From the IMG/VR virus record IMGVR_UViG_2939152649_000003: DNA of 41,609 nucleotides; one strand, written 5' to 3'. Positions 24,117 through 38,775 of this stretch are shown here, piece after piece (the first letter of the stretch is position 1; the number at the start of each line of letters is the position of its first letter). The position numbers and the translations under genes are program-made. This DNA comes from a virus (taxonomy: Duplodnaviria; Heunggongvirae; Uroviricota; Caudoviricetes). The notes beneath the pieces are model-generated. The model did not search any database and had not been told where the DNA came from. It saw nothing but the letters and a program-made list of their open reading frames with translations.

Positions 24117-24331
24117 TATTCCCCCCTGGCGGCTTTGCGCCGGTCCTCTTTGATTTTGAAATACAGGTTTGTCAGATACGTCAGCAGCCCGAACACCAGG
24201 CTGCCAAGCACACCAATGGCTGCCCACTGCGATGGTGACACCTGGTCAAGCAACTGCAGGCTCCAGTAACCAGCGTTAGTCGCTGATGCACCATAGGCGA
24301 TGCCAGTGGTTAGTTTTTCCATGCGTAACAT
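24116..24331 (-). CDS. Pinholin (phage 21 S21-like) with dual start
   Basis: 71-aa product [23 protein letters not shown]...[20 protein letters not shown] closely resembles S21 as recalled. M1 and M4 give the 71/68 antiholin/holin pair. Confidence 0.85.
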
Positions 24332-24427
24332 GCTCTCACCTCCGATTATTTCGGGGTGCTATGTGTAATGGGGATCAGGCTCTCGGGCTGCATTAACAAC
24401 AAGGCTTGTTGAGGAGGTTTCCCGGAG

Positions 24428-24459
24428 CCTGAAAAAGAAAAGGCCCGCGTATGCGAGCC
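24428..24459 (-). terminator. tR'-like intrinsic terminator between Q and the lysis genes
   Basis: Minus strand GGCUCGC-AUAC-GCGGGCC followed by UUUUCUUUUUC, about 100 bp upstream of the holin start. Confidence 0.5.
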
Positions 24460-24761
24460 TCTATAAATTCTTTGCCACTTCCCGGAGTGGCCACGCTCAT
24501 GCCCTTGAGCTGCTGTCGCATCATCGCCGCTTATCACCGGTGCGCGTCTGGCTTTCGCGCTGCTTTACCGGAGCTATTTTTAATCTATGACCCTGACCCG
24601 TCACTACACAGGCTCGCTCAATGGCGACTCGGGGCAGCATCATGACTGCTGCATTGCCTTTCGGCTACGGTGTGTCCGTTCTACTCTACATTTTCATACC
24701 CTCCAGAAACGGCAAAGCCCCGCGGGGTTAACCGCAGGGCTTTAAACGAAGGCAGTAACCC

Positions 24762-24810
24762 ATCGTTGGAGAGAAATTAACACAGATTCGGGAAAAGTAA
24801 ATAGCTCACG
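24762..24810 (-). promoter_or_regulatory. Late promoter PR'-like with Q-utilisation/pause region
   Basis: Minus strand has a -10-like TTAATT followed by CAACGATGGGTTA, the same initial-transcribed pause motif recalled from lambda PR'. Lies 30-80 bp downstream of the Q stop. Confidence 0.45.
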
Positions 24811-24838
24811 ATAAAATCGACAGCGATTAATTGGTGCT

Positions 24839-25669
24839 TTATCGAGTTATTGCTCGCAGTTGCGATTCGGCCCACGCTTCTTCCATGTCGAATTTGGTGA
24901 TCAGCCGGTCGTAAAACGGCTTCACTGACTTTTTCCAGGTGTCCAGAGTAATGGCGTCGGTAATAAGGCAAACAGCCGCATATGCCTCAGTCGAGGGGAT
25001 CCGCTCATACCCGCGCCCGCCGCAGCGCTTGCAGTCGGCCATCACCGGCGCGCCCTGCTTTTCTGTCAGCGTCTTGCTGACAGCTTTTCCGCGCCCCTGG
25101 CAGTCATTACATGCGCAGCTGACGACCTTCTTCCCTTTGCAGGCCGAGCACAGCACCCGGGCCACCTCTTTCACCTCACGCCGATTCTGATGCTGCGAAG
25201 GGATAACCTTCAGCCCCCATTTTTTTGATTTTTGAATGATGTCTTTTGCGCAGCCAGAGATGCTGGTTTTCATACTAAAAACGTCAGCCTCAATGAACCC
25301 CTGCCCTGCGCAACATTCGCACCTCTTGACGCTGGCGGCGCTGCGGGAATAGTCCTCAAAAGCGAAGGTAGCAAGCTGGCGCATCACCAGCGGTTTAACC
25401 CCAGCGTCCAGTTTGCGCAGGGCAGCCACGCTATCGCATTTTGTCAGCGCATACTGGGCCAGCAGCTCGATCGCTCTCTCCCGATCGTTGTTGCTGATGC
25501 CCATCTTTCCGAGAAAGGCACTGTAGCCCATGGCGGCGCGTTCCTGGGTCATGCCCATGGCTGCCATGATGTCCGTTCCGGTCAGCGAGTCGGAGGCCGT
25601 AGCGCGCGGAGAGTCGCTAATCAGCGTCGATTTGGCGAAGTGGTATTTCACGGTGTTTTCGAGGTTCAT
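24839..25669 (-). CDS. Late-gene antiterminator Q
   Basis: 276-aa product with Cys-rich zinc-binding motifs, immediately upstream of the PR'-like region and lysis cassette. Start overlaps the ylcG-like stop. Confidence 0.7.
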   Translation of the reverse strand: MNLENTVKYHFAKSTLISDSPRATASDSLTGTDIMAAMGMTQERAAMGYSAFLGKMGISNNDRERAIELLAQYALTKCDSVAALRKLDAGVKPLVMRQLATFAFEDYSRSAASVKRCECCAGQGFIEADVFSMKTSISGCAKDIIQKSKKWGLKVIPSQHQNRREVKEVARVLCSACKGKKVVSCACNDCQGRGKAVSKTLTEKQGAPVMADCKRCGGRGYERIPSTEAYAAVCLITDAITLDTWKKSVKPFYDRLITKFDMEEAWAESQLRAITR

Positions 25670-25806
25670 GCAGCAGCTCCTGCCAACTGGTTAATGCGAA
25701 TAAAATTGCGAAGAATGCGGTAGTCCACCAGCACCGAACCCGGGCGGCGATAAATGCGGAGGCGTGTCCAGCGCATGCGGATTACCTCAATCAGTTCTGA
25801 TGTCAT
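25666..25806 (-). CDS. YlcG-like small protein
   Basis: 46-aa [27 protein letters not shown]... found by translation; below the ORF-track cutoff. ATGA-coupled to both RusA and Q, as in the DLP12 rusA-ylcG-Q order. Confidence 0.5.
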
Positions 25807-26166
25807 AAGTCCCCCAGTTCGGTGATGGTCAGCTCCAGCCTGCCGCCCCTGACGACGGGCATCCGTATAACGCGGTAGTCGTCCACCAGCTGATCGTCCT
25901 GCCAGAATCCGGCCTTAGTAAGCGCGTCGAACGCGGCCTTCTGCAGGTTGTCCAGGTCACGGCGGCGGCGGTCAGGCATATGGCACTCGATGCGAATCTT
26001 CACCGGGCCGGAGATGCCGATATCCAGCAGCTGGTCTTTGATGATTTGGGCCACGCGGTCGCGGTAAGCCTGCCCTTCCGTGCTGATGTGCGTACGCCCG
26101 CGATTGTGTCGGTAATAGCGGTTATTACTCGGTGGCCACGGCAATGTGATTTTGTACTCGCTCACG
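25803..26166 (-). CDS. rusA: Holliday junction resolvase RusA
   Basis: About 120-aa product with a RusA-like sequence (…[29 protein letters not shown]…[13 protein letters not shown]…). Probable GTG start overlapping the upstream stop. Confidence 0.85.
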
Positions 26167-26452
26167 CTTTCACCTTCCCCTCTTTCAGCCAGATAACCTG
26201 CGTGCGGGCCATGCCCTCCAGCGCGCACTCCTTTGCATAATCCGCGTCGACCAGGCGAGTGCGGCGGTCGATTTCGTCGTGACAGCTGCTGCATGCAATG
26301 GTGGCAATCAGATCAGGCGGCTTAATTCCGGTACCGCACAGCCCGGCCAGGCGAATATGCGCCAGCACGCTTGTGTCTGGGTTGCCGTTGCACACGCCGG
26401 GGATCCGAACCTGACATTCGCGACCGCGCGCAGCTTTGCGTAAATCCGCCAT
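26162..26452 (-). CDS. YbcO-like (DUF1364) putative nuclease
   Basis: 96-aa product from [26 protein letters not shown]... with Cys/His motifs. The long ORF-track N-terminus is rejected. Confidence 0.55.
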
Positions 26453-26454
26453 GC

Positions 26455-26664
26455 TCACCCCCAGACCTTCTGACGGAGTGACCGCGGCGTACGTTCCTGC
26501 CGGTGCGCCTCCGGCAGCCGGGCGCTGACGGTCCAGGTGACGTAATCGGGATTCAGGCTTCGCTCTACCTTCACGCCGCGGCGCCGGTATTCCGCCATGA
26601 GCTCGTCGGCCTGCTGCGTGGTGCACTCGGTGTGCTGGAACCATGTTTCTTTCATCGGCATCAC
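26455..26664 (-). CDS. Hypothetical nin-region protein
   Basis: 69-aa ORF translationally coupled on both sides. Confidence 0.4.
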   Translation of the reverse strand: MMPMKETWFQHTECTTQQADELMAEYRRRGVKVERSLNPDYVTWTVSARLPEAHRQERTPRSLRQKVWG

Positions 26665-27260
26665 CCCACGAAGCTCATGAGCTGCGCAGCGGCATTATCC
26701 GCGTCGCTACGGCTCTTGAATGCCCTGGACAGGATCCAACGCCACAGAACATCGAGTGCGGCCCTGTAGAGTTGCTGGAACTCGGTTTCGTCCATATTGG
26801 CGAAGGCGATGCTGCGGGGGTGTTTGCGGAGGGTGCCGTCAGGCAGCTGGATCGCGTCGTAGTGGCCGGATTCGATGGTTACCCAGGCGCGGTAGGCGTC
26901 GAATGACTTGCAGGCGCTGATGCTGCCCGTGCGCTTATCAGCGATGCGCTCGAGATATTGCTCAGCGGCATCCAGCAGCGCCCCTTCGTTCCCGCCGTAG
27001 GAGGCCAGAAATCTGGCATAGCCGGTCACCAGCTTGCGTTCGTTGGAAGAGATCGCCCCGCCGGTTGGCTCCCAGTATTCGAACCCGAGGTTTAAAAGCG
27101 CGAAGAAGCGGCGGTGGAAAGCCGGATTGCGGACCTGTTTGAAGTCGGCTACCAGCACGGCGCCGAGTTTGATTTTTGATTGCAGAATATCGCTGGTCTC
27201 CGGCGTCGCGGGGATCAGGATTCCTGATGACTGCTTGATGAGTTGTAGTTCGTGCGCCAT
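26661..27260 (-). CDS. Hypothetical nin-region protein
   Basis: 199-aa ORF upstream of the YbcO-like and RusA genes. Confidence 0.45.
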   Translation of the reverse strand: MAHELQLIKQSSGILIPATPETSDILQSKIKLGAVLVADFKQVRNPAFHRRFFALLNLGFEYWEPTGGAISSNERKLVTGYARFLASYGGNEGALLDAAEQYLERIADKRTGSISACKSFDAYRAWVTIESGHYDAIQLPDGTLRKHPRSIAFANMDETEFQQLYRAALDVLWRWILSRAFKSRSDADNAAAQLMSFVG

Positions 27261-27294
27261 GGTTTCTCTCCGTGGCGCAGTAGGTTACGGTTGT

Positions 27295-27543
27295 TCAGAC
27301 CGTTGATTTCATATTATCAGAAGGTTGGGTTACCCGGTAGCCGAGACGGTTAATAAACTGCATAAAACCATTAGGAGTAAAGACCTCTTCATCATCCAGC
27401 AAAGGCCGCATAGAAACCATGCCATTGACGCGATAAATTAGATGCCTGCCCGATGAAGGAAAGCTAAACACCACGCAGCCGTCAGACCTTCTTACAATGT
27501 CATACCAGTTGTCTTCTGACGTTTGCAAAGCTGAATCACTCAC
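27295..27543 (-). CDS. Hypothetical protein
   Basis: 82-aa ORF between DinI and the nin genes. Confidence 0.4.
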   Translation of the reverse strand: MSDSALQTSEDNWYDIVRRSDGCVVFSFPSSGRHLIYRVNGMVSMRPLLDDEEVFTPNGFMQFINRLGYRVTQPSDNMKSTV

Positions 27544-27660
27544 ATTTATGTTCTCCCTTCGAGCGACTAACAGACGCGATTAAAGATTGTCGGCAGCAGC
27601 ATCAGAGGGTTACGCAAATTGCGGTATTCTGAAAAATGCGCGCCAGCCTTAAGCGCAATT

Positions 27661-27894
27661 CTAATAAAACCAGTCGTCAGCGCTTTCCCAGGTATCCTGG
27701 AGGATTGATTCAATTTTCTTTTTATCGTCCTTGTCACCACCAAAAACACTTAACCCATCGGCCCCGGCACGGCGGATTGTGAGCCTGCAATTGTCATAGT
27801 GATCATTCAGGCGCTTAAGCAGTTCTTTCTCCAGTGCTGGTACTGCGCCTTTAGGAAGTTCTTTCATGCGATCAATGGTTAATTCAACTTTCAC
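27661..27894 (-). CDS. dinI: DinI-like SOS-inducible protein
   Basis: VKVELTIDRMKELPKGAVPAL...ILQDTWESADDWFY aligns along its length with E. coli DinI as recalled. GTG start at 27894 behind a GGGGG RBS. Confidence 0.85.
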   Translation of the reverse strand: MKVELTIDRMKELPKGAVPALEKELLKRLNDHYDNCRLTIRRAGADGLSVFGGDKDDKKKIESILQDTWESADDWFY

Positions 27895-27912
27895 AATGGC
27901 CCCCATTGCACG

Positions 27913-27932
27913 TACTGTGTTTTTATACAGTA
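27913..27932. promoter_or_regulatory. LexA (SOS) box TACTGTGTTTTTATACAGTA
   Basis: Matches CTG-N10-CAG with palindromic TACTG...CAGTA ends, 19 bp upstream of the dinI-like start. Confidence 0.7.
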
Positions 27933-27992
27933 TACCTATGCGCGGAAATGATCAACGTTTTAAGAGCACAAATTGTTAATTTTCTGTCAGTA

Positions 27993-28022
27993 GTAAAAAA
28001 AGAAAACCCGCCGTAGCGGGTT
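27993..28022 (-). terminator. Intrinsic terminator (minus strand) at the accessory-island boundary
   Basis: AACCCGC-CGTA-GCGGGTT with UUCUUUUUUUACUA downstream on the minus strand. Confidence 0.5.
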
Positions 28023-28373
28023 GAATTAGCAGTGTTATATTAAGCGGCAATTTCTTTCTGCCGGCACAATCCCGAGAGATTCGCCCTCTGTATCGCATCA
28101 TCAATGAGCACCTGTATGACCATGAGGCAAAGCGTTATCCAACTTGCATTCATCTTTTTCAATCAGCAAAGGAGTGGTTAGTGCTGTGAGTGGGCTTTGT
28201 TCACTTCATGGTAGATAAATCAGCTATGGATAAGTGATAAGAGGTGAAATCAATCCGAATTAACAACCTGAAGCACATTAATCGGAACACAGATATTAAA
28301 ATCCTAAAGTCTAGTAACAAATAGCCGATATGAGATATTGCTTATCAGTTTAAAAATCATCTATTGAAAAAAT

Positions 28374-28380
28374 GGGGGGG
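28374..28380. repeat. Homopolymeric G7 tract at the 5' end of ORF 28386..28991
   Basis: ATG at 28372 runs into GGGGGG. With G7 that ATG is out of frame and stops after 5 codons; G8 would put it in frame with the 201-aa ORF. Confidence 0.9.
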
Positions 28381-28385
28381 AGGCG

Positions 28386-28991
28386 TTGAAGCGAGTAGAG
28401 CGCGATTTTATCTGTCTGTTTAATTGTGTGTGGTATCAAGATTTCCCTGTGTTCAAAGGTGAATATATCAACCGTTCCAACTGGACCATTCATGTTGGCC
28501 TGGTCATGCGCGAGTGTGCAAAGTTAATGGGCGCAAGAACATTTTTTGAACAAGGCGGGCGTACCGATGCGGTCCTACAATATCCAGACAATCAAATTTT
28601 AACCTATGTTGAGTGGGAGTATAATCAGGCAGACAGAGATAGCGTTAACGAGTTAGACAAACTGCTTGAAAAAAACGACAAGTGCTATTTCTCCACATTC
28701 ATCTCATATTGTCAGCATGAAAACATCAATATTGTTATTGAAAAAGCAAGTAGAATATGGAGTGAAGCAAGCAGGCCTTTGATTTTTTTTCTTATCACCT
28801 ATGAGCCTCAAACGAAAAAACGCCGCCATTTTTTAGAACTCAGAACTTATTTTTTCTCAAACGGCAAAAGAAAACTAGTTCGCAAACAACCTGCGCTTCC
28901 ATGGGATATTGAGCAACGAAATACAATGTCGAAGAAGATGCAGGATAGAAGAGACATAAGGTTTTCACGACAGTCTCGTTTCGAGCCCTAA
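28386..28991 (+). CDS. Hypothetical 201-aa protein (AT-rich accessory gene)
   Basis: ORF beginning at TTG 28386. Contains YPDNQILTYVEWEY and IVIEK, faintly reminiscent of a PD-(D/E)xK nuclease core. Confidence 0.5.
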   Translation: MKRVERDFICLFNCVWYQDFPVFKGEYINRSNWTIHVGLVMRECAKLMGARTFFEQGGRTDAVLQYPDNQILTYVEWEYNQADRDSVNELDKLLEKNDKCYFSTFISYCQHENINIVIEKASRIWSEASRPLIFFLITYEPQTKKRRHFLELRTYFFSNGKRKLVRKQPALPWDIEQRNTMSKKMQDRRDIRFSRQSRFEP

Positions 28992-29171
28992 CTAAAATAT
29001 TCTGTTCGGAGCAACCAAATAGCTCTGGCTTTGCTGTGACCATGTTCGCGGTACCAACGCCTCTCTAGGTCCGCTTCTCGCTCATGGTGGACCAAAATCA
29101 AATCTAAAATGACGTGGCTAAGCGGGAGTACATAGTGAATGACAGGATGCTCCGGGCAGCACCATACTAAT

Positions 29172-29369
29172 TCAGTTCCCGTCAGAGGTAGGCGTTGCTT
29201 CATGATGGGATGAGCGCTCCCTCCAGACAATCCATGCGACAGCCGCCTCCCATGATATATATCCATTACCGCCATTTTTCGCTCTGCGGAGATTAACTGC
29301 ATCACCAAACCTTTCAATGATGAATTTTTCAAATTCTATGCGTTTTTCTTCGTCGATTGTTGAATCCAT
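29172..29369 (-). CDS. Hypothetical small protein
   Basis: 65-aa ORF MDSTIDEEKRIEFEKFIIERFGDAVNLRRAKNGGNGYISWEAAVAWIVW... Preferred over the overlapping 28988..29332 ORF; low certainty. Confidence 0.3.
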   Translation of the reverse strand: MDSTIDEEKRIEFEKFIIERFGDAVNLRRAKNGGNGYISWEAAVAWIVWRERSSHHEATPTSDGN

Positions 29370-29648
29370 ACCTTCCCCAGAAGAGTCCTACGAATCGCTC
29401 TTATTGCATAAAAAATAGCATATACAATAGAGAGTGAAAAACCGACGTAGCGGGTTAACTTTATGTTACTCATGAGTCTTGTCTCGCTGCGACTTAAAAG
29501 CGGAACATTCTCGCGCAAGTTGCGTTGCTAAAGCTACGGGGTTGAATGGCTCTCCATGCCCATTTAAGAAGGCATGCGGTGTGTAGTTGAACGTTATTTA
29601 AAACACAGATAGAATCAAGAAAAATCCTAAATAAATGGAATATTGTTT

Positions 29649-30029
29649 ATGGCTAAGAAAATCGCATTACTGGGCTTTTCTGCTCTTTTTGTTGCAAGTG
29701 TTGCTTTTGCTGAAACGACAAGTAACTGGGTTGAGGTTACTACAGCTGATGATGGCATTTTTTCAGCAAAAAAAGGCACATTTAGAAATGTAAAAGGTGA
29801 TTCATCTGCCTTGTTCATGTATCAAACAAAAAATAAAAAAGTAGAGTACTACAAAGTTAGTATTAAAGATGCCGACTGTGATAGTGGATATGGGGAGATA
29901 AGATTCTTCTATATGGATGGGAAATTAGCTTTCAAAGGTGATTATGTTGCTGATGGGAACAGTGTTGGCGCAGGTATTGGTGATTTTATGTGTGGGGTCA
30001 GAATTGGACTTAACACACAAAAAAGTTAA
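29649..30029 (+). CDS. Secreted hypothetical protein
   Basis: MAKKIALLGFSALFVASVAFA-ETTSN is a typical signal peptide with an AFA-E cleavage site. AT-rich gene. Confidence 0.6.
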   Translation: MAKKIALLGFSALFVASVAFAETTSNWVEVTTADDGIFSAKKGTFRNVKGDSSALFMYQTKNKKVEYYKVSIKDADCDSGYGEIRFFYMDGKLAFKGDYVADGNSVGAGIGDFMCGVRIGLNTQKS

Positions 30030-30069
30030 ATGAGGGGCATTTGTTAAAAAACAATAGCCCCACATTAGA

Positions 30070-30272
30070 TCAATATTGGCTCCGGCATTTCTGGATAAAA
30101 GCTTCTATGCTACGGCGCTCATAGCGAACAACCTTAGCGCTGAACTTTACACGGGGCCAATGTAGACCGGTGTCGGTGTTCTGTATTCCATTTACATAAT
30201 GTTTTTTTGCGTAATTCCCAGCTTCTGGCATACCTCGCCCGGAGTGAGGAGATCATCAGGTTGCTCAGTCAT
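30070..30272 (-). pseudogene. AlpA/Xis-like regulator remnant, disrupted by two frameshifts
   Basis: ATG at 30272 (GAGG RBS) gives MTEQPDDLLTPGEVCQKLGITQKN then a stop. The next frame reads TLCKWNTEH and the third reads GLHWPRVKFSAKVVRYERRSIEAFIQ. Joined, these form a 66-aa AlpA-like protein. Confidence 0.45.
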
Positions 30273-30444
30273 GTTATGCCTCGCTGTTATCTGGGGTGAT
30301 GATTAGCAGCTTCCAGATGGCTGAGACATACATAGCCTGATGTTTCGCATCGACTAGGGCATTATGCATGTCACCTTCAAACGGCATGTCCCGAGTTCTC
30401 CCTTTTCGCCGCTTTCGCGTCGCATATTCTCCAAACGGTATTTA

Positions 30445-31002
30445 TCAATCATTACTGTTATCCTCGCAGTAGTAGTGCCGTCCCTCTGGGTCAGTAGATA
30501 CATGTCCGCAGATATCGCATTCAATTCCAGGAAGCACCGATTCTGACTGCGCTTTGATATGCAGTCGCGGTTCACCGTCTTTCGGCTCTGGCCACTGGCG
30601 GTTTTTGTTAACCGCCAGCTTTTCTACCATCGCCAGGGTAATCTGCTTATCACTGATACCGGCACGACGTTGCGCATCCCATAACAGGAATTGCATGTCA
30701 GCCCATTCGCTCATCTCGTCTGGTTCCGCAGCAGCCTCGATAGCTTCTTTGGAAAGGTGCTTCAGCGGACCAACTGGACCGACATCGCCGAATGTTTCAT
30801 CTGACCATGCTGCATGTTCACAGCGTACCTGCTCACGGGCTATCGACTCCAGAACCCCATCAATCACCTTCACTGCATCAGCCATTGCGTAGCCGAGATT
30901 ACCGCCGTCGCTTTGTGCTGCTGCTTTGCTGAGTATTTCGCGTATCTGGTGCAAGCGATCAAGTGATACAGGACCGTGCGCCGGGTGGTTGTTAGTTGTC
31001 AT
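30445..31002 (-). CDS. Hypothetical protein (DUF550-like nucleotide pyrophosphohydrolase domain?)
   Basis: 185-aa ORF. The domain assignment is from memory only. Confidence 0.4.
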   Translation of the reverse strand: MTTNNHPAHGPVSLDRLHQIREILSKAAAQSDGGNLGYAMADAVKVIDGVLESIAREQVRCEHAAWSDETFGDVGPVGPLKHLSKEAIEAAAEPDEMSEWADMQFLLWDAQRRAGISDKQITLAMVEKLAVNKNRQWPEPKDGEPRLHIKAQSESVLPGIECDICGHVSTDPEGRHYYCEDNSND

Positions 31003-31005
31003 GGG

Positions 31006-31206
31006 TTAGTCCTCTACCTTGTTTCCGCAATGCGGGCAGTAATTGAACTTATGGGCGAATCCAGGATGCGGAACGGCAAAGCGTTTGGTTTTCTCGTTCC
31101 AGTCAGCAATTACGATTTCAAAATTTACGACCGCATTAGCCCAGTCACTGGAAAGAACTGGCTGCGACCCAATCAGGCCGACTATACAGCGATTACATTT
31201 TTCCAC
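31006..31206 (-). CDS. Small zinc-ribbon protein
   Basis: 66-aa ORF with CxxC...CxxC (CNRC...CPHC). Confidence 0.45.
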   Translation of the reverse strand: MEKCNRCIVGLIGSQPVLSSDWANAVVNFEIVIADWNEKTKRFAVPHPGFAHKFNYCPHCGNKVED

Positions 31207-31210
31207 TGAC

Positions 31211-31405
31211 TCACACCCCCTTCACGCCAATGCCAGCAGTAAATCGCGACGGTGACCAATCGCAATATGTGTTCGACTCCGTGTGTCCAAAAATTGCTTT
31301 ACAACGATGGATATGGTGGCAATTACCACATGTTATGCCAGCCGGTAATCGCATCTTGTCGGGATCGGCTGGGTCATAATTCAACGCCAGTTTTTCGGTT
31401 GTCAT
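31211..31405 (-). CDS. Small Cys/His-rich protein
   Basis: 64-aa ORF with CGNCHHIHRC. Confidence 0.4.
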   Translation of the reverse strand: MTTEKLALNYDPADPDKMRLPAGITCGNCHHIHRCKAIFGHTESNTYCDWSPSRFTAGIGVKGV

Positions 31406-31740
31406 GCTGGCATCCTCCCCACGATATCTATAACCCGACGCATAACCGCACTTCCCCGAAAATCTGCTGGTAACTCAATCAGAGGCTTACTCGAACCGTA
31501 TGAGAATCGTTGGAGATCGAAATCAATTACAGCCTTTGGGTCCCTGAACAAATCTAGACGACCGTAACGAATGAGTTCGCCGCGTTCGGCTGCTACGCGG
31601 AAATACTTCTCAGCAGTCTGACGATGCAGCGACAACATCTGTGATGCCTCGCTAACGGTTAAGCGTCCACGGATTTTCACCTCTTCGATGATCACCCGGA
31701 TAAGTGCCGCCTGCTCTTCTGGTGTATTTGGTCTTGGCAT
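31402..31740 (-). CDS. Hypothetical protein downstream of the O-like gene (P position)
   Basis: 112-aa ORF coupled to the O-like gene. Too small for lambda P or a DnaC-like loader. Confidence 0.4.
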   Translation of the reverse strand: MPRPNTPEEQAALIRVIIEEVKIRGRLTVSEASQMLSLHRQTAEKYFRVAAERGELIRYGRLDLFRDPKAVIDFDLQRFSYGSSKPLIELPADFRGSAVMRRVIDIVGRMPA

Positions 31741-31742
31741 GC

Positions 31743-32687
31743 TTACCCCCTGAATCCGGGTGGGATTGTTTTGTCTGGCTCAGAAATGCGGTTCACATCC
31801 CTGCCCGTTTTGCGAGCGTTGAGAGCGAACTTCGGTTTAAACAGTCCCTGGTACCCGTTGGCGATACTGGTGTTGATCACATCAACGGGGTCATGCCCAG
31901 CGTCCAGGCAAGCCTTGAGCAACTTGAATGCTTTGGTGACCGTCATTTCGGTCTTGATGGCTTTGCCAGACTGTTGGCGGTAGGCCACCCACTCACTCCA
32001 GGACACAGAATCAAGCCACTCAGGAACGGGAATCGTCAGCGGGTCAAACTTACCCTTCCCCTTTGGGGGATTAGAGGGGGTTAGATCTGTATTTATATTT
32101 GTATTTGGAAGAATGTCTTTGGTGTTCCCTGTTTTCAGGGATACCTCTCCCTGTTTTTGGGGATGGTTATCCCCGTTTTCAGGGATGATTGAAGGGGTAA
32201 AATTGCTATCCCTGAATTCAGGGATGGTAATAACCCATGTGACAACTTCAGCAGCAGGAAACACCGCTGGACACTTCATGCAATTTGGCTTGGTATACGC
32301 CCATTTATCCAGGCTGGTATTAATCCCTATGTATCTGGTTTGCCCAATGCGGCGCAGGATGATGATGTTCCGATAGGCAAGGCTCAACACGGCTTCAGAG
32401 ACGTGTTTCACCTTCAGCGTCGTTTTATCTGCAATGAGGCTATTGGCGATGCGGTCAGAACTCTTAGACCAGCCATAGGTCAGACGAACGATAGCATTCA
32501 GCACCCGGAACTCGCGCCCGGATAGTTCGACGATACACAGGGCATCCTGAATCTGGTTGGCCAGGCGCAAATAGCCTTTCTCCAGTTCAGCCATGCTGCT
32601 CTCCTGTTTCCCCTGCTGTGTGGGGAATTTGAATATTTCAGCGGTATTTGACATACTGTTCTCCGCAATTACGCACAGTTTTTGCAC
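31743..32687 (-). CDS. Replication initiator protein (lambda O-like)
   Basis: N-terminal region resembles the O N-terminal domain (LSGREFRVLNAIVRLTYGW). Pro/Asn/Thr-rich linker. Ori-type iterons lie inside the coding sequence. Confidence 0.7.
   Translation of the reverse strand: MQKLCVIAENSMSNTAEIFKFPTQQGKQESSMAELEKGYLRLANQIQDALCIVELSGREFRVLNAIVRLTYGWSKSSDRIANSLIADKTTLKVKHVSEAVLSLAYRNIIILRRIGQTRYIGINTSLDKWAYTKPNCMKCPAVFPAAEVVTWVITIPEFRDSNFTPSIIPENGDNHPQKQGEVSLKTGNTKDILPNTNINTDLTPSNPPKGKGKFDPLTIPVPEWLDSVSWSEWVAYRQQSGKAIKTEMTVTKAFKLLKACLDAGHDPVDVINTSIANGYQGLFKPKFALNARKTGRDVNRISEPDKTIPPGFRG
32126..32224. repeat. Replication origin iterons (4 copies) inside the O-like gene
   Basis: TCCCTGTTTTCAGGGA (32126), TCCCTGTTTTTGGGGA (32148), TCCCCGTTTTCAGGGA (32170) and TCCCTGAATTCAGGGA (32209), the first three at 22-bp spacing, beside an AT-rich stretch at 32085..32115. 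Confidence 0.7.
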
Positions 32688-32738
32688 CTGAAAGCCGTTG
32701 GTGTTCGAGCACCGCGGCTTTCGCCATTTCTGAGCCCG

Positions 32739-33296
32739 TCATAGCGCACCACCCAGCATCGTTGTAACCATCGCCATAATGGGCGCCACAGAATCAGGTC
32801 CGTCCAGGTAGAGCTTGGCTACGATGCTCTCGCTGATTTCCTTCATCCGTTCGTGTCTGGGGGCTTTGAGGACGACAGCCTGTATCGCCTCAGCGTCTTC
32901 TTTCACCGACCTGGCGACACGAACCGCAAAGCAGTCGTGCTTAATCACGCGATCCCGGTACGCCAGCGGCAGAACCGAAATTATTACCGGCGCCAGCTGC
33001 TCGACGTTCGCCCGGTAGGCCGGTGATTTCTCGTGGTTGTCCAGCCAGCGAAACAGCTTCACGTTCCACACATCGGCGCTGCCGGTCATGTCAATGCTGT
33101 CAAGCTCGGCCTGTTCGGCAGCCTCTTTAATCGCCAGAGCGACCGCCACGCGGCCCTCTGCCGCCGCCCAGGCGCGGACGGCAGAACAGATAGCCCGGTG
33201 ATCGACCGGCTGGCCTTCAGCCTCACTGTGTTGATACTGGAATTTCAGGTGCTCTGATGGCGCTCTGTTATTCTGTTGAAAAGAAAGTGTTTGCAT
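32739..33296 (-). CDS. Putative early regulator (CII-like / YdaT-like)
   Basis: 185-aa ORF directly downstream of the Cro-like gene and upstream of the O-like gene. Assigned by position. Confidence 0.4.
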   Translation of the reverse strand: MQTLSFQQNNRAPSEHLKFQYQHSEAEGQPVDHRAICSAVRAWAAAEGRVAVALAIKEAAEQAELDSIDMTGSADVWNVKLFRWLDNHEKSPAYRANVEQLAPVIISVLPLAYRDRVIKHDCFAVRVARSVKEDAEAIQAVVLKAPRHERMKEISESIVAKLYLDGPDSVAPIMAMVTTMLGGAL

Positions 33297-33307
33297 TGTC
33301 AGTGCTC

Positions 33308-33526
33308 CTACTTTGGTAATCCGTCAGTGGGATTTGGATAGAGATCAGGGCGCAGCTCGTGGGGGGTTACGCCTGTCATTTTGAAAATCGGGAAGATATA
33401 GCTTGGCGGGACGATCCCTTGGTCACGATTCTTCCAATGACTTACAGACATACTCGTCACACCAAGCGCGATGCTGAGCTTTCTGGCAGAGCCAGCGGCT
33501 TTAATTGCTTTATCGAGTGCGGACAT
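33308..33526 (-). CDS. Cro-like HTH regulator (YdaS/DicC-like)
   Basis: 72-aa HTH protein (KLSIALGVTSMSVSHWK) divergent from the repressor gene. AGGAG RBS. Confidence 0.65.
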   Translation of the reverse strand: MSALDKAIKAAGSARKLSIALGVTSMSVSHWKNRDQGIVPPSYIFPIFKMTGVTPHELRPDLYPNPTDGLPK

Positions 33527-33555
33527 GTGCTTCTCCTGCTTATTGATAGCAGAAG

Positions 33556-33618
33556 TAAACCACAGATTTATACTTCATGCAAACTTTGGATTTATTGCGT
33601 GCATAAACCAAATATTTA
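33556..33618. promoter_or_regulatory. Right operator region with three operator repeats and divergent promoters
   Basis: TAAACCACAGATTTA (33556), CAAACTTTGGATTTA (33580) and TAAACCAAATATTTA (33604) at exact 24-bp spacing. A TTGCGT-16-TACAAT promoter would start transcription at or near the repressor ATG. Confidence 0.55.
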
Positions 33619-33628
33619 CAATGACCAT

Positions 33629-34018
33629 ATGAGAAAAGAAGAACCCAACCTCGTTCTGGTGGAGCGCCTTACTGAGATCACTGATCGCGGCGTTACCAAA
33701 GCAGACATGGCAAGAATAGCTGGAGTCACCCCTCAGGCCGTAAACGGCTGGTTCAAAAAAGGCGTGATTAGTAAGAAATCGGCACTGGCCATAGCCGACG
33801 CTGTTGGTATTTCTGTCGCCTGGCTACTCGGTGAAGACGTTGGGGAGAAAGACGGTCTCAAACCGGACGAACAGCGTTTGCTCGAGCTCTACCGCCAGTT
33901 ACCGGAAGAAGAGCAGCAGAACATGCTCCGCATTTTTGCGCTTCGCCTGAAAGAGTTAGATGAGCTGTACGAGAAGTACATGAAGGGTCGGATTCGATCG
34001 CAAGGTGAGCAAACCTAA
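33629..34018 (+). CDS. DicA-like phage repressor (HTH, no peptidase domain)
   Basis: 130-aa product with an N-terminal HTH (ITDRGVTKADMARIAGVTPQAVNGWFKKG). The C-terminus (LKPDEQRLLELYRQLPEEEQQNMLRIFALRLKELDELYEKYMKGR) parallels DicA as recalled. ATG sits directly after the third operator. Confidence 0.75.
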   Translation: MRKEEPNLVLVERLTEITDRGVTKADMARIAGVTPQAVNGWFKKGVISKKSALAIADAVGISVAWLLGEDVGEKDGLKPDEQRLLELYRQLPEEEQQNMLRIFALRLKELDELYEKYMKGRIRSQGEQT

Positions 34019-34082
34019 ACCAGTAGTATCTAATTCCATGTAATAAAAATATTTCAAGATTTAATATCTTCTGGAGGATTCG

Positions 34083-34364
34083 GTGTCTAAAGAAACAACC
34101 GTCGAACTTATGCATCTTAATGATGTAATCGAAGCGAAAAATTTCATCGAGACCAATGCTGACGGTGTCGTAACAATCGGCACACAAAATGCCGGTTACG
34201 AAGTTTACAATTTTGTGTTCCTGAATAGCAGCCCGATCATCGGTACGGATAATGCGGATATAGTCGTCAAGGGCATGCAGCGAACCAAAGTTGTGTCTGT
34301 GACTTTAAGCAAACAAAAGGCTTATGATTTTTATCAATCCTTAAAAAGTATGTTTGAGGAATAA
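34083..34364 (+). CDS. Hypothetical protein A (immunity-operon accessory gene)
   Basis: 93-aa ORF with a GTG start 5 nt after a GGAGG RBS. AT-rich, co-oriented and 64 bp downstream of the repressor. Confidence 0.6.
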   Translation: MSKETTVELMHLNDVIEAKNFIETNADGVVTIGTQNAGYEVYNFVFLNSSPIIGTDNADIVVKGMQRTKVVSVTLSKQKAYDFYQSLKSMFEE

Positions 34365-34367
34365 TAA

Positions 34368-34892
34368 TTGATGGATGCGGCTCAATCATCTCTTGGTGAA
34401 GGGAAGTTATTGATTGCATATTCAGACCATAGCGGAGCTACAGTAGGCTTAGAGTTTTCATCAGTAGCTTCGAGCCAAGCAACCTTCCTTATGGGTGCTT
34501 GTAGTTTTGCCGCTTCGGATAAACAAAAACGGATTGTCACATCAGTTGCTATGGATGATACTGAAATCATTCATACGTCAACTGAAGATGGAGGTGACGA
34601 CATGGAAAAGAGATTGGCTATTCTTGAGGTTGAAGTTGCCCACATCAAGAAAGATGTTGCCGAGATAAAAAACACAGTTTCAAAAGTTGATACGACAGTG
34701 AATTCACTGGACAAAAATATGGCTGTAGTTTTGGAGAGGCTGTCTAGTATCAAAGAGTCTGTAGACAAAAAGCCCTCATCAGACACAGTGGACAAGAAAA
34801 TCTCTGATGCTAAATTGGCGATTCTCTTAGGTGTCCCTGCGATTATCGCCATTGGTACAGGGCTGTACAAAGCTTTTATGCACTTCTTTTAG
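34368..34892 (+). CDS. Hypothetical membrane-anchored coiled-coil protein B (XhlA/holin-like C-terminus)
   Basis: 174-aa product with a central heptad-like coiled coil and a single C-terminal TM helix (LAILLGVPAIIAIGTGLYKAFMHFF). Start is 4-7 bp after the stop of gene A. Confidence 0.65.
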   Translation: MMDAAQSSLGEGKLLIAYSDHSGATVGLEFSSVASSQATFLMGACSFAASDKQKRIVTSVAMDDTEIIHTSTEDGGDDMEKRLAILEVEVAHIKKDVAEIKNTVSKVDTTVNSLDKNMAVVLERLSSIKESVDKKPSSDTVDKKISDAKLAILLGVPAIIAIGTGLYKAFMHFF

Positions 34893-34966
34893 TCAGATTT
34901 GGTCAATACGCCTGAGTTATAAGGCTCTCAGCTACTAACTCTGTCGCCTTCCCCGAACCTTCTCAT

Positions 34967-34992
34967 CCCGACCACGCGTCGGGATTTTTTTT
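34967..34992 (+). terminator. Intrinsic terminator closing the repressor-A-B operon
   Basis: CCCGAC-CACGC-GTCGGG followed by ATTTTTTTT. Confidence 0.7.
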
Positions 34993-35031
34993 GCCTGCGA
35001 TTCTGCAGACGTGTCACAAAACCCAGCCACA

Positions 35032-35095
35032 TAAACCTCAGATTTACAACTAACACTAACCTTAAGTTGACACATATATAAACCAGTGATTTAAT
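35032..35095 (+). promoter_or_regulatory. Early-left promoter (pL-like) with two operator repeats
   Basis: TTGACA (35067) - 17 bp - TTTAAT (35090). Operator copies TAAACCTCAGATTTA (35032) and TAAACCAGTGATTTA (35079); the second overlaps the -10. Confidence 0.6.
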
Positions 35096-35347
35096 CTAAC
35101 TCACCAAGACGCACCACGAACCACCCAGGCATGGAGCCCACGAAGTAGCCGTCCGGGGCATACGAAAACCGGAATGAGGTGGTGATATTAACGCGCAGTA
35201 GGTTTGAAACGTTCCGCCAGCCTGGCGACAAGGGCAAACACAGAAGTGAGCTTCGCGGTGGTGAATTGCAGAGTTAAAACGCTCAACTGTGAAGATCAGC
35301 GTCACGGCACCACCAGCGAAGTTCACTCAGCAATAGTGGAGAACATC

Positions 35348-35554
35348 ATGGTTCATCAGCACTACGGTACACAGACAGTAAACCGCGGCGCAGTTCAGCC
35401 GGGGATGCTTGTAAAACACAAAGACTCAACCTGGACCGCATCTGCTAACGCACGCGGTCGCCTGTATCTTCACCGTGGCATCGAACGTACCTACACCAAA
35501 GATTTGCTGGTTGAGGTTTATCTAAACGGTTTAGGACATGGCCTTAGCCATTAA
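35348..35554 (+). CDS. Hypothetical early protein
   Basis: 68-aa ORF from MVHQHYGTQ with a GGAGAA RBS. The ORF-track start at 35204 is less convincing. Confidence 0.4.
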   Translation: MVHQHYGTQTVNRGAVQPGMLVKHKDSTWTASANARGRLYLHRGIERTYTKDLLVEVYLNGLGHGLSH

Positions 35555-35565
35555 CGGAGTGAGTT

Positions 35566-35727
35566 ATGCAGGAGAAAAAATGCGCGTACTGCCGCAAGCC
35601 GATCAAGCAAGGGAAGGAAGTTAAAAACGAACTGCTCTTTATCCACGGCACGCAGTTGAAACGCGAGCAACGTGATTACTGTTCAGTACGTTGCGCTTCG
35701 TTCGACCAGATGGCCCACGAAGCATAA
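35566..35727 (+). CDS. Small zinc-ribbon protein (53 aa)
   Basis: MQEKKCAYCRKPIKQGKEVKNELLFIHGTQLKREQRDYCSVRCASFDQMAHEA with a GGAGTGAG RBS. Below the ORF-track cutoff. Confidence 0.45.
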   Translation: MQEKKCAYCRKPIKQGKEVKNELLFIHGTQLKREQRDYCSVRCASFDQMAHEA

Positions 35728-35865
35728 CGAAAACCCCGCGCAAGGCGAGATTCACGTCCGGTGCCACCGACCAAAGTTACACCGGAATTTATACCAAACC
35801 AAAAAACATCCAATGGGCGCTATCTCTGGCCCGGGGATTCTAACACTCAAAAAAGAGGATCTCAC

Positions 35866-38775
35866 ATGGAATTTTTCCATCTGATAAAAGCCAGTCAGAA
35901 GTCTGGCAAGAAAGATGCAGTGATTTGGTTCACTGCGAAAAGTGTAGCGCGCGCCAATCTCCAACTCGATGTGGCACTGGAAGAAGCCGGAATTGAAGAA
36001 ACTGGCCGCGGTAAAGATTATGCCAAACCAATCCGCACCGATTTCCCGGTATATGACGACCTGCCGGAAGAAGGCGCAGTGGATTACACCTGGTGCAAAC
36101 GCTACGAACTGCAGAACGATGACCGCACCTGGATGCCAAAAGTCACAGCTGAAAACTCTGACGAGAAAACGGCTCAGACCGTTGATAGTCACATAACTAC
36201 TGAGTCAACGCTGCCAGAAACCGCTGGCATCACGCTGGACGAACACGACGACGACTCAACCCTCTACCCGGTAGTGCAGATGCCGTTTCGTAAGCAACTG
36301 CTTTCCCAGTTCACCGCCGACGAACTGCGCCACCACGTAACCCGCGAAGAGTACGAAGCTATCGGCGCGCTGGAGATGGACACTGATAACAGTTACGTCC
36401 AGAACTTGCTGTTAGCTGCTGAGAACTGCCCGGACGTGAAGGGTTACGACACCAAAGACCTGTGGCGCTACACCGATGCCATTCGCAAAGTGTTCAGCCA
36501 GGACAAGCGTCACGAACTCGCGCTGGTACTCCGTTTCACCAGAATGTGGGCGGCGACTGATTACATTGACCGTGGCATCCTGGCGCGTGAATGGGCTGCC
36601 GGTAATCACATCAGTAGTGTTCAGCGTACTGATTCCGGAACCAATGCCAACGGCGGTTACGTCACTGACCGTGGACCTGATGCATACCATACCCTTGACA
36701 CTCTCGATTTAGAGATTGCATGTGCCCTTCTGCCTATGGACTTCAACCACTTCGAGATCCCGGGCAGCATTCTTCGTCGCGCTAAAGAAATCGTGACCAA
36801 AAAAGAAGAACCGTGGAAATCATGGAGCAGCATTCTGCGCAATCAACCCGGCGTTCTTGGCGTTAACCGCACAGCTATTTTTAACCTGATACGTATCGCG
36901 CCGGAAAATATTCATCTAACTCCTGTCGCTCACCTGGAGTTTGTTAACCGGACCATGACTGCTGCGTTTAATGCTGCTGTTGAGTTATTGCCATTGCATG
37001 AAGCTGAGCCCGCAACACAGGAAATTCCCCAACCTGAAAGTAAGGAGTCTCCACGCAAACCCTTCTGCACTCACGAAGAGAACCTGCAACGCGTACGTGA
37101 AGAAGAAGCACGCCGCCGCGCAGAGGAAGCGACAGCACAACCACATAAAGCCGAACAAGAACTGGTTAAAAATGTCGGCAACGGAATATTCGATGTTACG
37201 GCTTTACTGCAGAACTCAGCAACTCATGGCACGAAACAGGCTACGGAAACCACCAGCAATGTGCAGGTTCAAGAAACTGTCAGTGATGAAAAAAATGTTG
37301 GTAATGAAATGCAGTCAGGCGAAAGCAGTCTGGAAACTGGTGAAGAGTCACATCCCGGCCAGCAGGCCGATGTAAACCAAAATACGGAATCTGTCGCTCA
37401 AAATAGCGATTCTGTAAACCAGACTGAACCAGTTTTGGCACACGTCGAGCCAGAGGCGCAATCTGACGAACAAGCTGTTTTTTACCCCGATTACTTCGAG
37501 CCTGGGCGCTATGAAGGTCTGCCGAACGAGGTTTACCACGCTGCCAACGGCATCAGTTCCACCTAGGTAAAAGATGCGCGCGTTTCGCTGATGTACTTCA
37601 ATGCGCGCCACGTTGAGAAAACCATCGTCAAAGAGCGCTCCTCAGTGCTGGACATGGGAAACCTGGTACATGCGCTGGCGTTGCAGCCAGAACAGCTCGA
37701 TGAAGAATTTAGCGTTGAACCCGTAATTCCGGAAGGTGCATTTACCACCACGGCAACGATCCGCGCGTTTATTGATGAGTACAACGCCAGCCTGCCAGCG
37801 CAACTGAGCGCAGACGATATCAAAGCTTTGCTGGATGAATACAACGCCACCCTGCCAGCGCTGGTGCCGCTGGGCGCTAGCCTGGATGAAACGGCGCAGA
37901 ACTATATGGCGCTGCCAGCTGAATTCCAACGTATCGATGCAGATCAGAAGAAGACAGCAACAGCAATGAAGGCGTGCATCAAAGAGTACAACGCCACCCT
38001 GCCAGCGCAGATTAAAACCAGCGGCAGCCGCGACGCACTACTCGAACAACTTGCGATTATCAATCCTGACCTGGTCGCGCAGGAAGCTCAGAAGCTGCAA
38101 CCGCTGAAAGTCTCTGGCACGAAGGCCGATCTGATTCAGGCCGTGAAGGCAGTCAAACCAGATGCAGTGTTCGCCGACGAGCTGCTCGATGCGTGGCGCA
38201 ACAACCCGGAAGGGAAAGTGCTGGTTACCCACCAGCAACTTGCCACCGCGCAGGCAATTCAGTCAGCACTGCTCTCGCACCCGACCGCAGGCATGCTGCT
38301 AACCCACCCGAGCCGCGCCGTTGAGGTGAGCTACTTTGGCTTTGACGAGGAGACGGGACTGGAAGTTCGTGTGCGCCCTGACCTTGAGATCGACCTAGAC
38401 GGCGTGCGTATCGGTGCTGACCTGAAAACCATCAGCATGTGGAATGTTAAGCAGGAAAGCCTGCGCGCCAGGCTACACCGGGAAATTATTGAACGTGATT
38501 ATCACCTGAGCGCGGCTATGTACTGCGAAACCGCAGCGCTGGATCAGTTCTTCTGGATTTTCGTCAACAAAGACGAGAACTACCACTGGATCGCCATCAT
38601 CGAGGCATCCGCTGAACTACTGGAGCTGGGTATGCTCGAGTACCGCAAAGCGATGCGCAATATCGCAACCGGATTCGACACAGGTGAATGGCCAGCGCCA
38701 ATCACTGCTGACTACACCGACGAACTGAACGACTTCGACCTGCGCCGCCTTGAAGCGCTGCGTACTCAGGCATAA
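35866..38775 (+). pseudogene. recE: RecE-like exonuclease VIII gene interrupted by one in-frame amber codon (37564..37566)
   Basis: ORFs 35866..37566 and 37591..38775 share one frame, separated by a single TAG. The stop falls in YHAANGISST*VKDA, aligned with the lambda-exo motif WH..RLGVITASEV. The PD-(D/E)xK core RPDLEIDLDGVRIGADLK lies downstream. Confidence 0.6.

Follow-up and report, generated by a model that had tools for sequence, protein, structure and literature searches.

Architecture of the switch region

The DNA analysed here, referred to as the window, is the full 41,609-nt stretch of the virus record IMGVR_UViG_2939152649_000003, a prophage of Escherichia coli. The element looks like a complete lambdoid prophage, with int, recET, replication genes, Q and lysis genes; it adjoins kch in E. 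coli strain ECCWS199, and its 1.9-kb switch region is present at an identity of at least 99.6% in 12 of 5426 complete E. coli genomes. This switch region is the subject of the present work. A reading made from the sequence alone had proposed that five copies of one operator motif, TAAACC-N3-GATTTA, define there a lambda-like bipartite immunity switch. The features of the region are the following.

32739-33296, minus strand: YdaT-family protein (Pfam YdaT_toxin, 1.5e-17)
33308-33526, minus strand: Cro-like regulator of the YdaS family, 72 amino acids (aa) (Pfam YdaS_toxin, 1.4e-13; weak P22_Cro match)
33554-33582, minus strand: promoter PR as read from the sequence, -35 TTGCAT (33582-33577), 17-nt spacer, -10 TTTACT (33559-33554)
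33556-33570, no strand assigned: O1 (OR1-like operator), TAAACCACAGATTTA, perfect match, in the PR spacer and -10
33580-33594, no strand assigned: O2 (OR2-like, weaker), CAAACTTTGGATTTA, 2 mismatches, sharing 3 bp with the PR -35 and directly adjacent to the PRM -35
33595-33622, plus strand: PRM-like maintenance promoter, TTGCGT (33595-33600), 16-nt spacer, TACAAT (33617-33622)
33604-33618, no strand assigned: O3 (OR3-like), TAAACCAAATATTTA, 1 mismatch, in the PRM spacer and -10
33629-34018, plus strand: immunity repressor, 129 aa, with an N-terminal helix-turn-helix (HTH) and a conserved C-terminal helical half (Pfam HTH_3 only)
34965-34993, plus strand: intrinsic terminator of the repressor-cargo transcript, 8-pair stem (34965-34985) followed by TTTTTTT
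35032-35046, no strand assigned: distal left operator (OL3-like), TAAACCTCAGATTTA, perfect match
35056-35070, no strand assigned: degenerate middle left site, CTAACCTTAAGTTGA, 7 of 12 positions, over the pL -35
35067-35095, plus strand: promoter pL, near-consensus, TTGACA (35067-35072), 17-nt spacer, TTTAAT (35090-35095)
35079-35093, no strand assigned: proximal left operator (OL1-like), TAAACCAGTGATTTA, perfect match, in the pL spacer and -10

All five proposed copies of the motif are present where they had been placed, with 0, 2, 1, 0 and 0 mismatches over the 12 specified bases on which the motif was scored. The first three start at 33556, 33580 and 33604, in steps of exactly 24 bp, inside the 102-bp gap between the cro-like and repressor genes, while the other two, at 35032 and 35079, are both perfect and are found as claimed at the pL-like promoter, with a spacing of 47 bp. 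In its general form the motif is an imperfect palindrome of 15 bp, the dyad TAAAyC-N3-GrTTTA. When further copies were sought with up to two mismatches, 13 matches were found in the window versus 2.03 expected, a number that was reached by none of 100 dinucleotide shuffles. Perfect 12-base matches, of which about 0.005 would be expected in 2 x 41.6 kb, occur three times, all within 1.5 kb.

The sites are interlocked with the promoters. O1 occupies the spacer of PR and provides the first four bases of its -10 hexamer, and O2 overlaps its -35; downstream of PR are the cro-like, ydaT-like and replication genes, with the YdaT-family gene followed by the replication O gene. In the opposite direction, the -35 of PRM begins one base past O2, and O3 covers the spacer of this promoter together with the beginning of the -10. 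The design of PR is repeated at pL, where the site at 35079 begins 12 bp past the first base of TTGACA and supplies, with its final four bases followed by AT, the -10. The genes downstream of pL are kil-like (Kil PHROG), ydaE-like, recE (Exonuc_VIII), recT and int, and the terminator at 34965-34985 separates pL and the left sites from the two genes, A and B, that follow the repressor. The promoter hexamers quoted in the sequence-only reading, TTGACA-17-TTTAAT for pL and TTGCGT-16-TACAAT for PRM, are both there. Neither is listed by a consensus promoter scanner that requires an A at -10 position 2 and at least 9 of 12 matches, given that pL fails the rule on -10 position 2 and PRM fails the 9/12 rule.

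The equivalent of the degenerate middle left site in phage PHB10, TAATCCTTTGATTGA, matches at 10 of 12 positions, which gives that phage three left sites in steps of 24 and 23 bp. The left operator is probably tripartite also in the window, with a degenerate middle site over the pL -35, at a distance of 1.48 kb from the right operator. A three-site cassette is common to both early promoters and, at the right operator (OR), the distal site doubles as the site that occludes PRM, which is the logic of lambda.

The repressor and its divergent partner

The divergent Cro-like and repressor pair described in the sequence-only reading is borne out by the family searches, with the YdaS/Cro-family gene at 33308-33526 on the minus strand facing the HTH repressor gene at 33629-34018 on the plus strand. 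The protein encoded next to this pair belongs to the YdaT family, whose member in CP-933P is a functional analogue of cII (PMC9986795). A Peptidase_S24 domain is absent from the repressor in the Pfam search, and with 129 aa the protein is also too short for the lambda CI/LexA-like S24 family, in agreement with the earlier statement that it carries no RecA-cleavable domain. Its designation as DicA-type holds in part. The repressor is a distant homologue of DicA over its full length (28% identity, E 5e-12), but its score against the NCBIfam DicA model (NF007257) is 34.2 bits, below the cut-off of 101. A PDB sequence search with the repressor returned only spurious ubiquitin repeats and marginal matches to the HTH of the 434 repressor. 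Its identity with GtgR of Gifsy-2 is 26%, while 114 of 127 residues, including the whole recognition helix, are identical to those of the repressor of a Salmonella prophage located at the Gifsy-1 site (L070).

Conservation of the sites and the operator code

A protein-level search of 50,697 phage records returned homologous repressors, which in PHB10, SW-37, SEN34, mEp237 and three Klebsiella phages are 62-97% identical to that of the window. Megablast against phages matched PHB10 alone, and the protein-level search was needed for the other relatives. A scan of one genome per bacterial species added 50 further loci, from Enterobacterales. The loci for the comparison, 45 of which were analysed, were picked by protein similarity alone.

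In the 45 loci, the outer right sites are located at -72 to -75 and -25 to -27 from the repressor ATG. O1 of the window, at -73, falls in the first of these ranges, and O3 is found at -25, a placement (-25 to -27) that is kept in nearly all relatives; a weak site near -49, equivalent to O2, is seen in several of them. For each locus, a half-site consensus was built solely from O1 and O3 and then sought downstream of the repressor, where 32 of the 45 loci gave a pair of sites spaced by 45-48 bp and 11 gave a single site, versus the 0.2-0.5 matches per locus expected from shuffles. TTGACA is bracketed by the left pair, with the proximal site forming the -10, in all the relatives that were aligned, and the proximal left operator TAAACCAGTGATTTA is identical in PHB10, L070 and several of the genome loci. 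The geometry of PR (a -35, a spacer of 17 nt, and a hexamer to which the operator contributes its last 4 nt) is common to PHB10, Kp4865-4, ST974phi18.2, SW-37 and L070, as read by eye on the reverse strands of the intergenic regions. The repeats are conserved at fixed positions in the 45 loci, and the OR1-3/OL-like layout claimed for the window is shared by related phages and prophages across many Enterobacterales, in which the operator co-varies with the recognition helix.

Indeed, the half-site varies symmetrically with the recognition helix of the repressor across the 45 loci, in the following combinations.

Helix GVTPQAVNGWFKKG (short form TPQAVNGWFKKG): half-site TAAAyC, in some loci TAAAsC
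Helix G[VI]TPQSVNGWFKKG: half-site TAAGyC
Helix GVSKQAVS[GS]WFKTG: half-site TAAAGC
Helix GVS[SA]QSVNNWFVRG: half-site TAAACA
Helix GVSPQSVNGWYRRG (short form SPQSVNGWYRRG): half-site TAAGCC

Judged from these alignments, a symmetric change of helix and half-site is the signature of operators for these proteins and not of promoter composition. The HTH of the Cro-like protein varies along the same immunity classes as the repressor. Heteroimmune relatives differ hardly at all in residues ~70-125 of the repressor, and this C-terminal half fits a shared surface for an antirepressor or for oligomerisation. A literature search found no operator sequences for GfoR/GfhR-type repressors, mEp237, PHB10 or SEN34, and the study of the Gifsy repressors (PMC3121763) gives none for GfoR or GfhR. 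The 15-bp operator motif of this family appears to be unpublished within the literature searched.

The repressor transcript

Between the end of the PRM -10 and the ATG at 33629 there are 6 nt, and no Shine-Dalgarno sequence precedes this ATG. The predicted start of transcription is at or next to the A of this ATG, which would give a leaderless repressor mRNA, as the sequence-only reading had anticipated. Intergenic regions were read for seven phage relatives, and in these, as in the window, a -10-like hexamer lies 6-7 nt before the repressor ATG. About 20 relatives have an in-frame stop no more than 15 nt ahead of this codon. There is also precedent for such messages. In the CP-933P switch, the leaderless mRNA of the repressor was demonstrated by 5' RACE (rapid amplification of cDNA ends) and N-terminal sequencing of PaaR2 (PMC8630535), and lambda cI mRNA is itself leaderless (PMC8630535). 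In Gifsy-3, the promoter of the short form of GfhR was mapped between two in-frame AUGs (PMC3121763), a layout that agrees with the one seen in mEp237 in the present comparison.

The start of the gene is annotated differently. PGAP gives a 139-aa form of the repressor that begins at a GTG at 33599, inside the promoter. The in-frame stops that about 20 relatives carry upstream indicate that the 139-aa form is not conserved and that the ATG at 33629 is the conserved start. In RefSeq/PGAP and in many database entries, members of the family begin 8-32 codons too far upstream, as forms of 137, 139 and 161 aa, within operator and promoter DNA. From the sequences this looks like a systematic misannotation of the start site, of the kind expected for leaderless genes.

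The SOS module and the probable route of induction

For a repressor lacking an autocleavage domain, the sequence-only reading had concluded that induction must use another route. A candidate for this route is found 6 kb from the switch, in the same window, with the following features.

28022-28005, minus strand: terminator upstream of the LexA box
27913-27932, minus strand: LexA box TACTGTATAAAAACACAGTA (TACTGT-N8-ACAGTA, perfect), overlapping the promoter of the dinI operon
27661-27906, minus strand: dinI homologue (DinI Pfam 4e-26; 65% identical to Gifsy-2 STM1019)
27295-27543, minus strand: candidate antirepressor open reading frame (ORF), 82 aa, GTG start, GGGAG Shine-Dalgarno sequence, between dinI and DUF1367
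26661-27260, minus strand: DUF1367/irsA-like gene (85% identical to Gifsy-2 STM1020)

In Salmonella, the Gifsy repressors are not cleaved on induction, and the antirepressors GfoA and GfhA, under LexA control, act on GfoR and GfhR (PMC3121763). The Gifsy SOS operons are ordered as terminator, LexA box, dinI, antirepressor gene with a non-AUG start, and irsA (PMC3121763), and the module of the window has this same layout, with a small ORF that does not start with ATG in the place of the antirepressor and irsA/DUF1367 after it. At the antirepressor position of the Salmonella Gifsy-1-site prophage there is likewise an ORF of 82 aa, with a TTG start, to which the ORF of the window is 91% identical, and 14 of the 17 phage records that contain the window's ORF also hold the repressor family. 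Pfam, NCBIfam and PHROGs provide no functional name for the ORF, and its database names are all 'hypothetical protein'. The L070 prophage lies beside rseC/rseB and has parA downstream of its repressor, an O1 identical to that of the window, a left pair 47 bp apart and a LexA box; the context of its repressor (Gifsy-1 attachment site, parA) agrees with the gfoR/gfhR constructs of PMC3121763, to which it is likened by gene context. On the basis of the Gifsy-type module, the likeness to L070 and the co-occurrence of repressor and small ORF, the window was assigned to Gifsy-1/Gifsy-3-type immunity, for which induction by antirepressor is predicted. A LexA-controlled antirepressor is most likely the means by which this prophage would be induced, and the LexA-boxed operon of dinI, the 82-aa ORF and DUF1367 is the candidate source.

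A second terminator-like hairpin is located between dinI and the 82-aa ORF (27657-27639, minus strand) and could attenuate expression of the antirepressor.

Proposed mechanism and alternative explanations

Taken together, the five sites are considered to be the operators, O1-O2-O3 on the right and OL on the left, of the switch in a lambdoid prophage of E. coli whose immunity is of the Gifsy-1 type, a reading to which a probability of roughly 0.8 is attached. A dimer of the 129-aa HTH repressor would recognise each 15-bp dyad TAAAyC-N3-GrTTTA. Occupancy of O1 and of the weaker O2 would close PR and keep the cro-like/ydaT/replication operon off. The centre of O2, which abuts the poor -35 of PRM, is ~42 bp upstream of the predicted start, a position from which it could activate transcription of the repressor. 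O3, inside PRM, would allow negative autoregulation by the repressor and would likely be the first target of the Cro-like YdaS. The leaderless transcript from PRM would run through the two cargo genes of low GC content and end at the terminator at 34965. At OL, the repressor would cover the -10 and spacer of pL (35079) and the upstream site at 35032, with the degenerate site over the -35, and would thus silence kil-recET-xis/int. Cooperative binding, looping between OL and OR and positive autoregulation of PRM are all compatible with this geometry. Upon DNA damage, LexA would be released from the box at 27913-27932 and, with it, dinI, the 82-aa ORF and DUF1367 would be expressed; the 82-aa protein would then bind the conserved C-terminal half of the repressor, which lacks an autocleavage domain, and free it from DNA. 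Such antirepressor release has been observed experimentally for GfoA/GfhA acting on GfoR/GfhR in Salmonella (PMC3121763).

Sequence and comparison provide the sites, their non-random occurrence, their conserved positions, the co-variation with the helix, the overlaps with promoters and the SOS module. Several points nonetheless weigh against this assignment, starting with the fact that the whole case for this element is drawn from sequence. PR (TTGCAT, 17 nt, TTTACT) and the -35 of PRM are weak by consensus, and the middle left site, with 7 of 12 positions, makes cooperative filling of three left sites uncertain in this prophage. Loci that share one helix (TPQAVNGWFKKGVI) differ in half-site, TAAACC versus TAAAGC or TAAACT, which means that the helix is not the full determinant of specificity. 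The L070 repressor may be either GfoR or GfhR. The antirepressor identity of the 82-aa ORF is deduced from its position, type of start codon, size and the 91% identity to the ORF at the Gifsy-1 position, and no similarity was detected when the ORF was compared with Rem of Qin and with GftA in the Gifsy-2 region. The GfoA/GfhA class is described as distant from GftA (PMC3121763), so that a lack of similarity to GftA is expected if the ORF belongs to that class.

This same dissimilarity of the ORF to Rem and GftA would also fit a different use of real sites, in which the switch is mainly a bistable toggle between repressor and Cro that controls the cargo of a domesticated prophage, as in CP-933P, and flips spontaneously or with the growth phase, the LexA-dinI module being unrelated to inactivation of the repressor. 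Bistability of this kind occurs in CP-933P without an SOS response (PMC8630535), and DicA/DicC of Qin switch spontaneously, with no need of RecA or the Rem antirepressor (PMC10448788). However, the prophage of the window appears complete, its repressor is ~90% identical to that at the Gifsy-1 site, where the repressors are antirepressor-controlled in the strains studied, its small ORF has its close counterpart at the Gifsy-1 antirepressor position, and the families of repressor and small ORF co-occur across phages. A toggle of this type is thus regarded as unlikely.

The protein that binds the motif could also be the Cro-like YdaS or YdaT only, with the DicA-like protein recognising another sequence. 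Cro-family proteins do bind short dyads, and the HTH of YdaS varies by immunity class as does that of the repressor, but the half-sites follow the recognition helix of the repressor across the 45 loci, and the operon silenced from the left sites has to stay off in a lysogen, a task that falls to the repressor. Moreover, repressor and Cro share their operators in every lambdoid switch that has been studied, including PaaR2 and YdaS by footprinting (PMC8630535), and the YdaT motif of CP-933P, TTGATT-N6-AATCAA, is not enriched and has no convincing site near the switch, which makes exclusive binding by either protein a very poor candidate. Hardly any credence is given to the view that the repeats have no dedicated binding protein and simply reflect the AT-rich DNA of promoters, through chance or through promoter architecture. 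The sites do double as -10 hexamers at their right ends, and promoter function would be expected to lead to some conservation, but the observed count was not reached in any of the 100 shuffles. In addition, both half-sites change symmetrically between classes (TAAGCC...GGCTTA versus TAAACA...TGTTTA) while their positions remain fixed, for which promoter constraints offer no explanation.

Comparison with known switches

With operators of a Gifsy-1-type switch as the preferred reading, the closest known systems are Gifsy-1 and Gifsy-3 of S. Typhimurium (Lemire, Figueroa-Bossi and Bossi 2011, PMC3121763), which also have a short HTH repressor without a cleavage domain and an SOS module. The C-terminal half of the repressor that is shared among the heteroimmune relatives studied here is in keeping with the cross-acting antirepressors of that study, and the prophage at the Gifsy-1 site (L070) has in common with the window O1, the spacing at OL and the pL leader. 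The window differs from the Gifsy prophages in its host, E. coli, and its location beside kch, in the cargo past the repressor (the A-B pair versus parA) and in the gene past cro (YdaT type versus CII type by Pfam).

CP-933P/Sp12 of E. coli O157:H7, with PaaR2, YdaS and YdaT (Jurenas et al. 2021, PMC8630535; PMC9986795), has the same gene order, a repressor without a peptidase domain, a leaderless repressor mRNA, shown there by 5' RACE, and repeated operators over PR/PRM and again at PL, beyond the cargo (paaA2-parE2). In contrast, PaaR2 is 19% identical over 81 residues of the C-terminal part (E 5e-4) and the YdaS of CP-933P reaches 27% identity. CP-933P has four palindromic operators of 18 bp with the half-site GTTTAGTAA (PMC8630535), whereas the window has 15-bp dyads, and the intergenic repeats of Sp12 are of the GTTTAGTG type, different from those of the window. 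No SOS-linked antirepressor is known in CP-933P. By sequence, the PaaR2 system is an architectural analogue and not a member of the same family.

Lambda CI/Cro shares with the window a divergent PR/PRM pair with three operators in between, spaced in steps of 23-24 bp, a middle site that touches the PRM -35, a leaderless cI mRNA, co-transcribed cargo (rexAB) and a second operator cluster over pL. The operators of lambda are of 17 bp versus 15 bp here, and the repressor of the window, as predicted from its domain content, lacks the S24 autocleavage domain and RecA-dependent cleavage; no N/nut system is evident, and the cII analogue is of the YdaT type. DicA/DicC of Qin, with the antirepressor Rem (PMC10448788), is similar in the distant full-length homology of the repressor, the divergent Cro-like partner and antirepressor control, which has been demonstrated there (PMC10448788). 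It differs in that the small ORF of the window is not Rem-like and in that the window has a LexA box, whereas no signal that induces Rem is known.

The finding is correct but largely ordinary, given that Gifsy-type antirepressor-controlled lambdoid immunity is already known. Current understanding is not overturned by it; the models of Lemire 2011 and Jurenas 2021 are extended to a new host and made predictive from sequence. It would provide the first explicit operator definition found for the widespread Gifsy-1/Gifsy-3-type immunity family, and the useful additions are the operator code, the view of a cargo slot and an unannotated RNA in the pL leader. The table of helices and half-sites is a specificity code that can be tested directly. 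With it, homo- and hetero-immunity of enterobacterial prophages would become predictable from sequence, the prophage of the window and Salmonella L070, with the same O1 and recognition helix, being one example, as would the prophages that are co-induced by shared LexA-controlled antirepressors.

The cargo slot

The two cargo genes lie between the repressor and OL, at 34083-34892 on the plus strand. A encodes 93 aa, and B encodes a coiled-coil protein of 173 aa that has a hydrophobic segment at its C-terminus. Both fall in PHROGs families of unknown function; they gave no defence-system match above noise in PADLOC and no credible Pfam assignment. The A-B stretch has ~40% GC versus 51-58% in its flanks, and A/B are found on at least 1000 contigs versus 18 for the repressor. 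In relatives, the left pair follows the repressor stop after anything from ~10 to ~2470 bp. From this comparison, the stretch between repressor and OL is seen as a variable cargo slot, comparable to that of rexAB in lambda, which explains where cargo expressed in the lysogen (parA, toxin-antitoxin systems, the A-B pair) is inserted. A-B occupy the place taken in related switches by rexAB, paaA2-parE2 and parA.

A structured element in the pL leader

35121-35184, plus strand: structured element with covariation, ~65 nt, about +20 to +83 of the predicted pL transcript

The outer helix of this element is CCACC/GGTGG, which alternates with TCATC/GATGA, and its inner hairpin carries many compensatory changes. 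Over 34 distinct sequences, 98.2% of the cells are paired versus ~35% in slid controls, and there are 59 double-change cells versus 19.5 in shuffles. The unpaired stretches AGGCAGGACGCCCACGAAGTAGC and GCATACGAA are nearly invariant. The same leader is present after pL in L070, and a covariance model, which matches the window once only, finds the element after pL also in the loci L054-L058, where the repressors are only 30-37% identical. Neither nhmmer nor the model found it in the stretches of Gifsy-2 or Qin that were searched, a scan of 33000-36000 matched no Rfam family to it, and single-sequence folding of the leader was uninformative (z = +1.1). In size and position the element recalls putL of HK022 (PMC9378689), but no similarity to put was detected, nhmmer and the covariance model both coming out empty in HK022 24000-34000. 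By its covariation it may be a cis-acting leader or antiterminator RNA.

A broader proposal can be made only tentatively, namely that GfoR/GfhR-type immunity is plug-and-play, with a conserved C-terminus that receives the antirepressor, a swappable code of helix and 15-bp operator (at least five specificities) on a fixed OR/OL scaffold and a cargo slot of 0-2.5 kb, and that the structure at +20 to +83 of pL is a leader RNA of a new kind for the early-left operon, acting in cis and independently of protein, as a put-like antiterminator would.

Two further Rfam matches were set aside. An isrB-like match at 35729-35824 on the minus strand, antisense to the start of the recE-like ORF, scored 26.9 bits versus a gathering score of 35 (E 0.046) and is probably due to chance, and a sub-threshold match over the terminator, similar to a toxic small RNA, was also regarded as chance.

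Other observations

Between the replication/nin region and the dinI operon (28386-30029), the plus strand carries ORFs without family match, which have the look of further moron cargo. One of them encodes 201 aa at 28386-28991, and another, at 29643-30029, encodes a protein of 128 aa whose N-terminus resembles a signal peptide by eye. In strain ECCWS199, the region that matches 28386-30029 differs from that of the window and carries tRNA-Ile.

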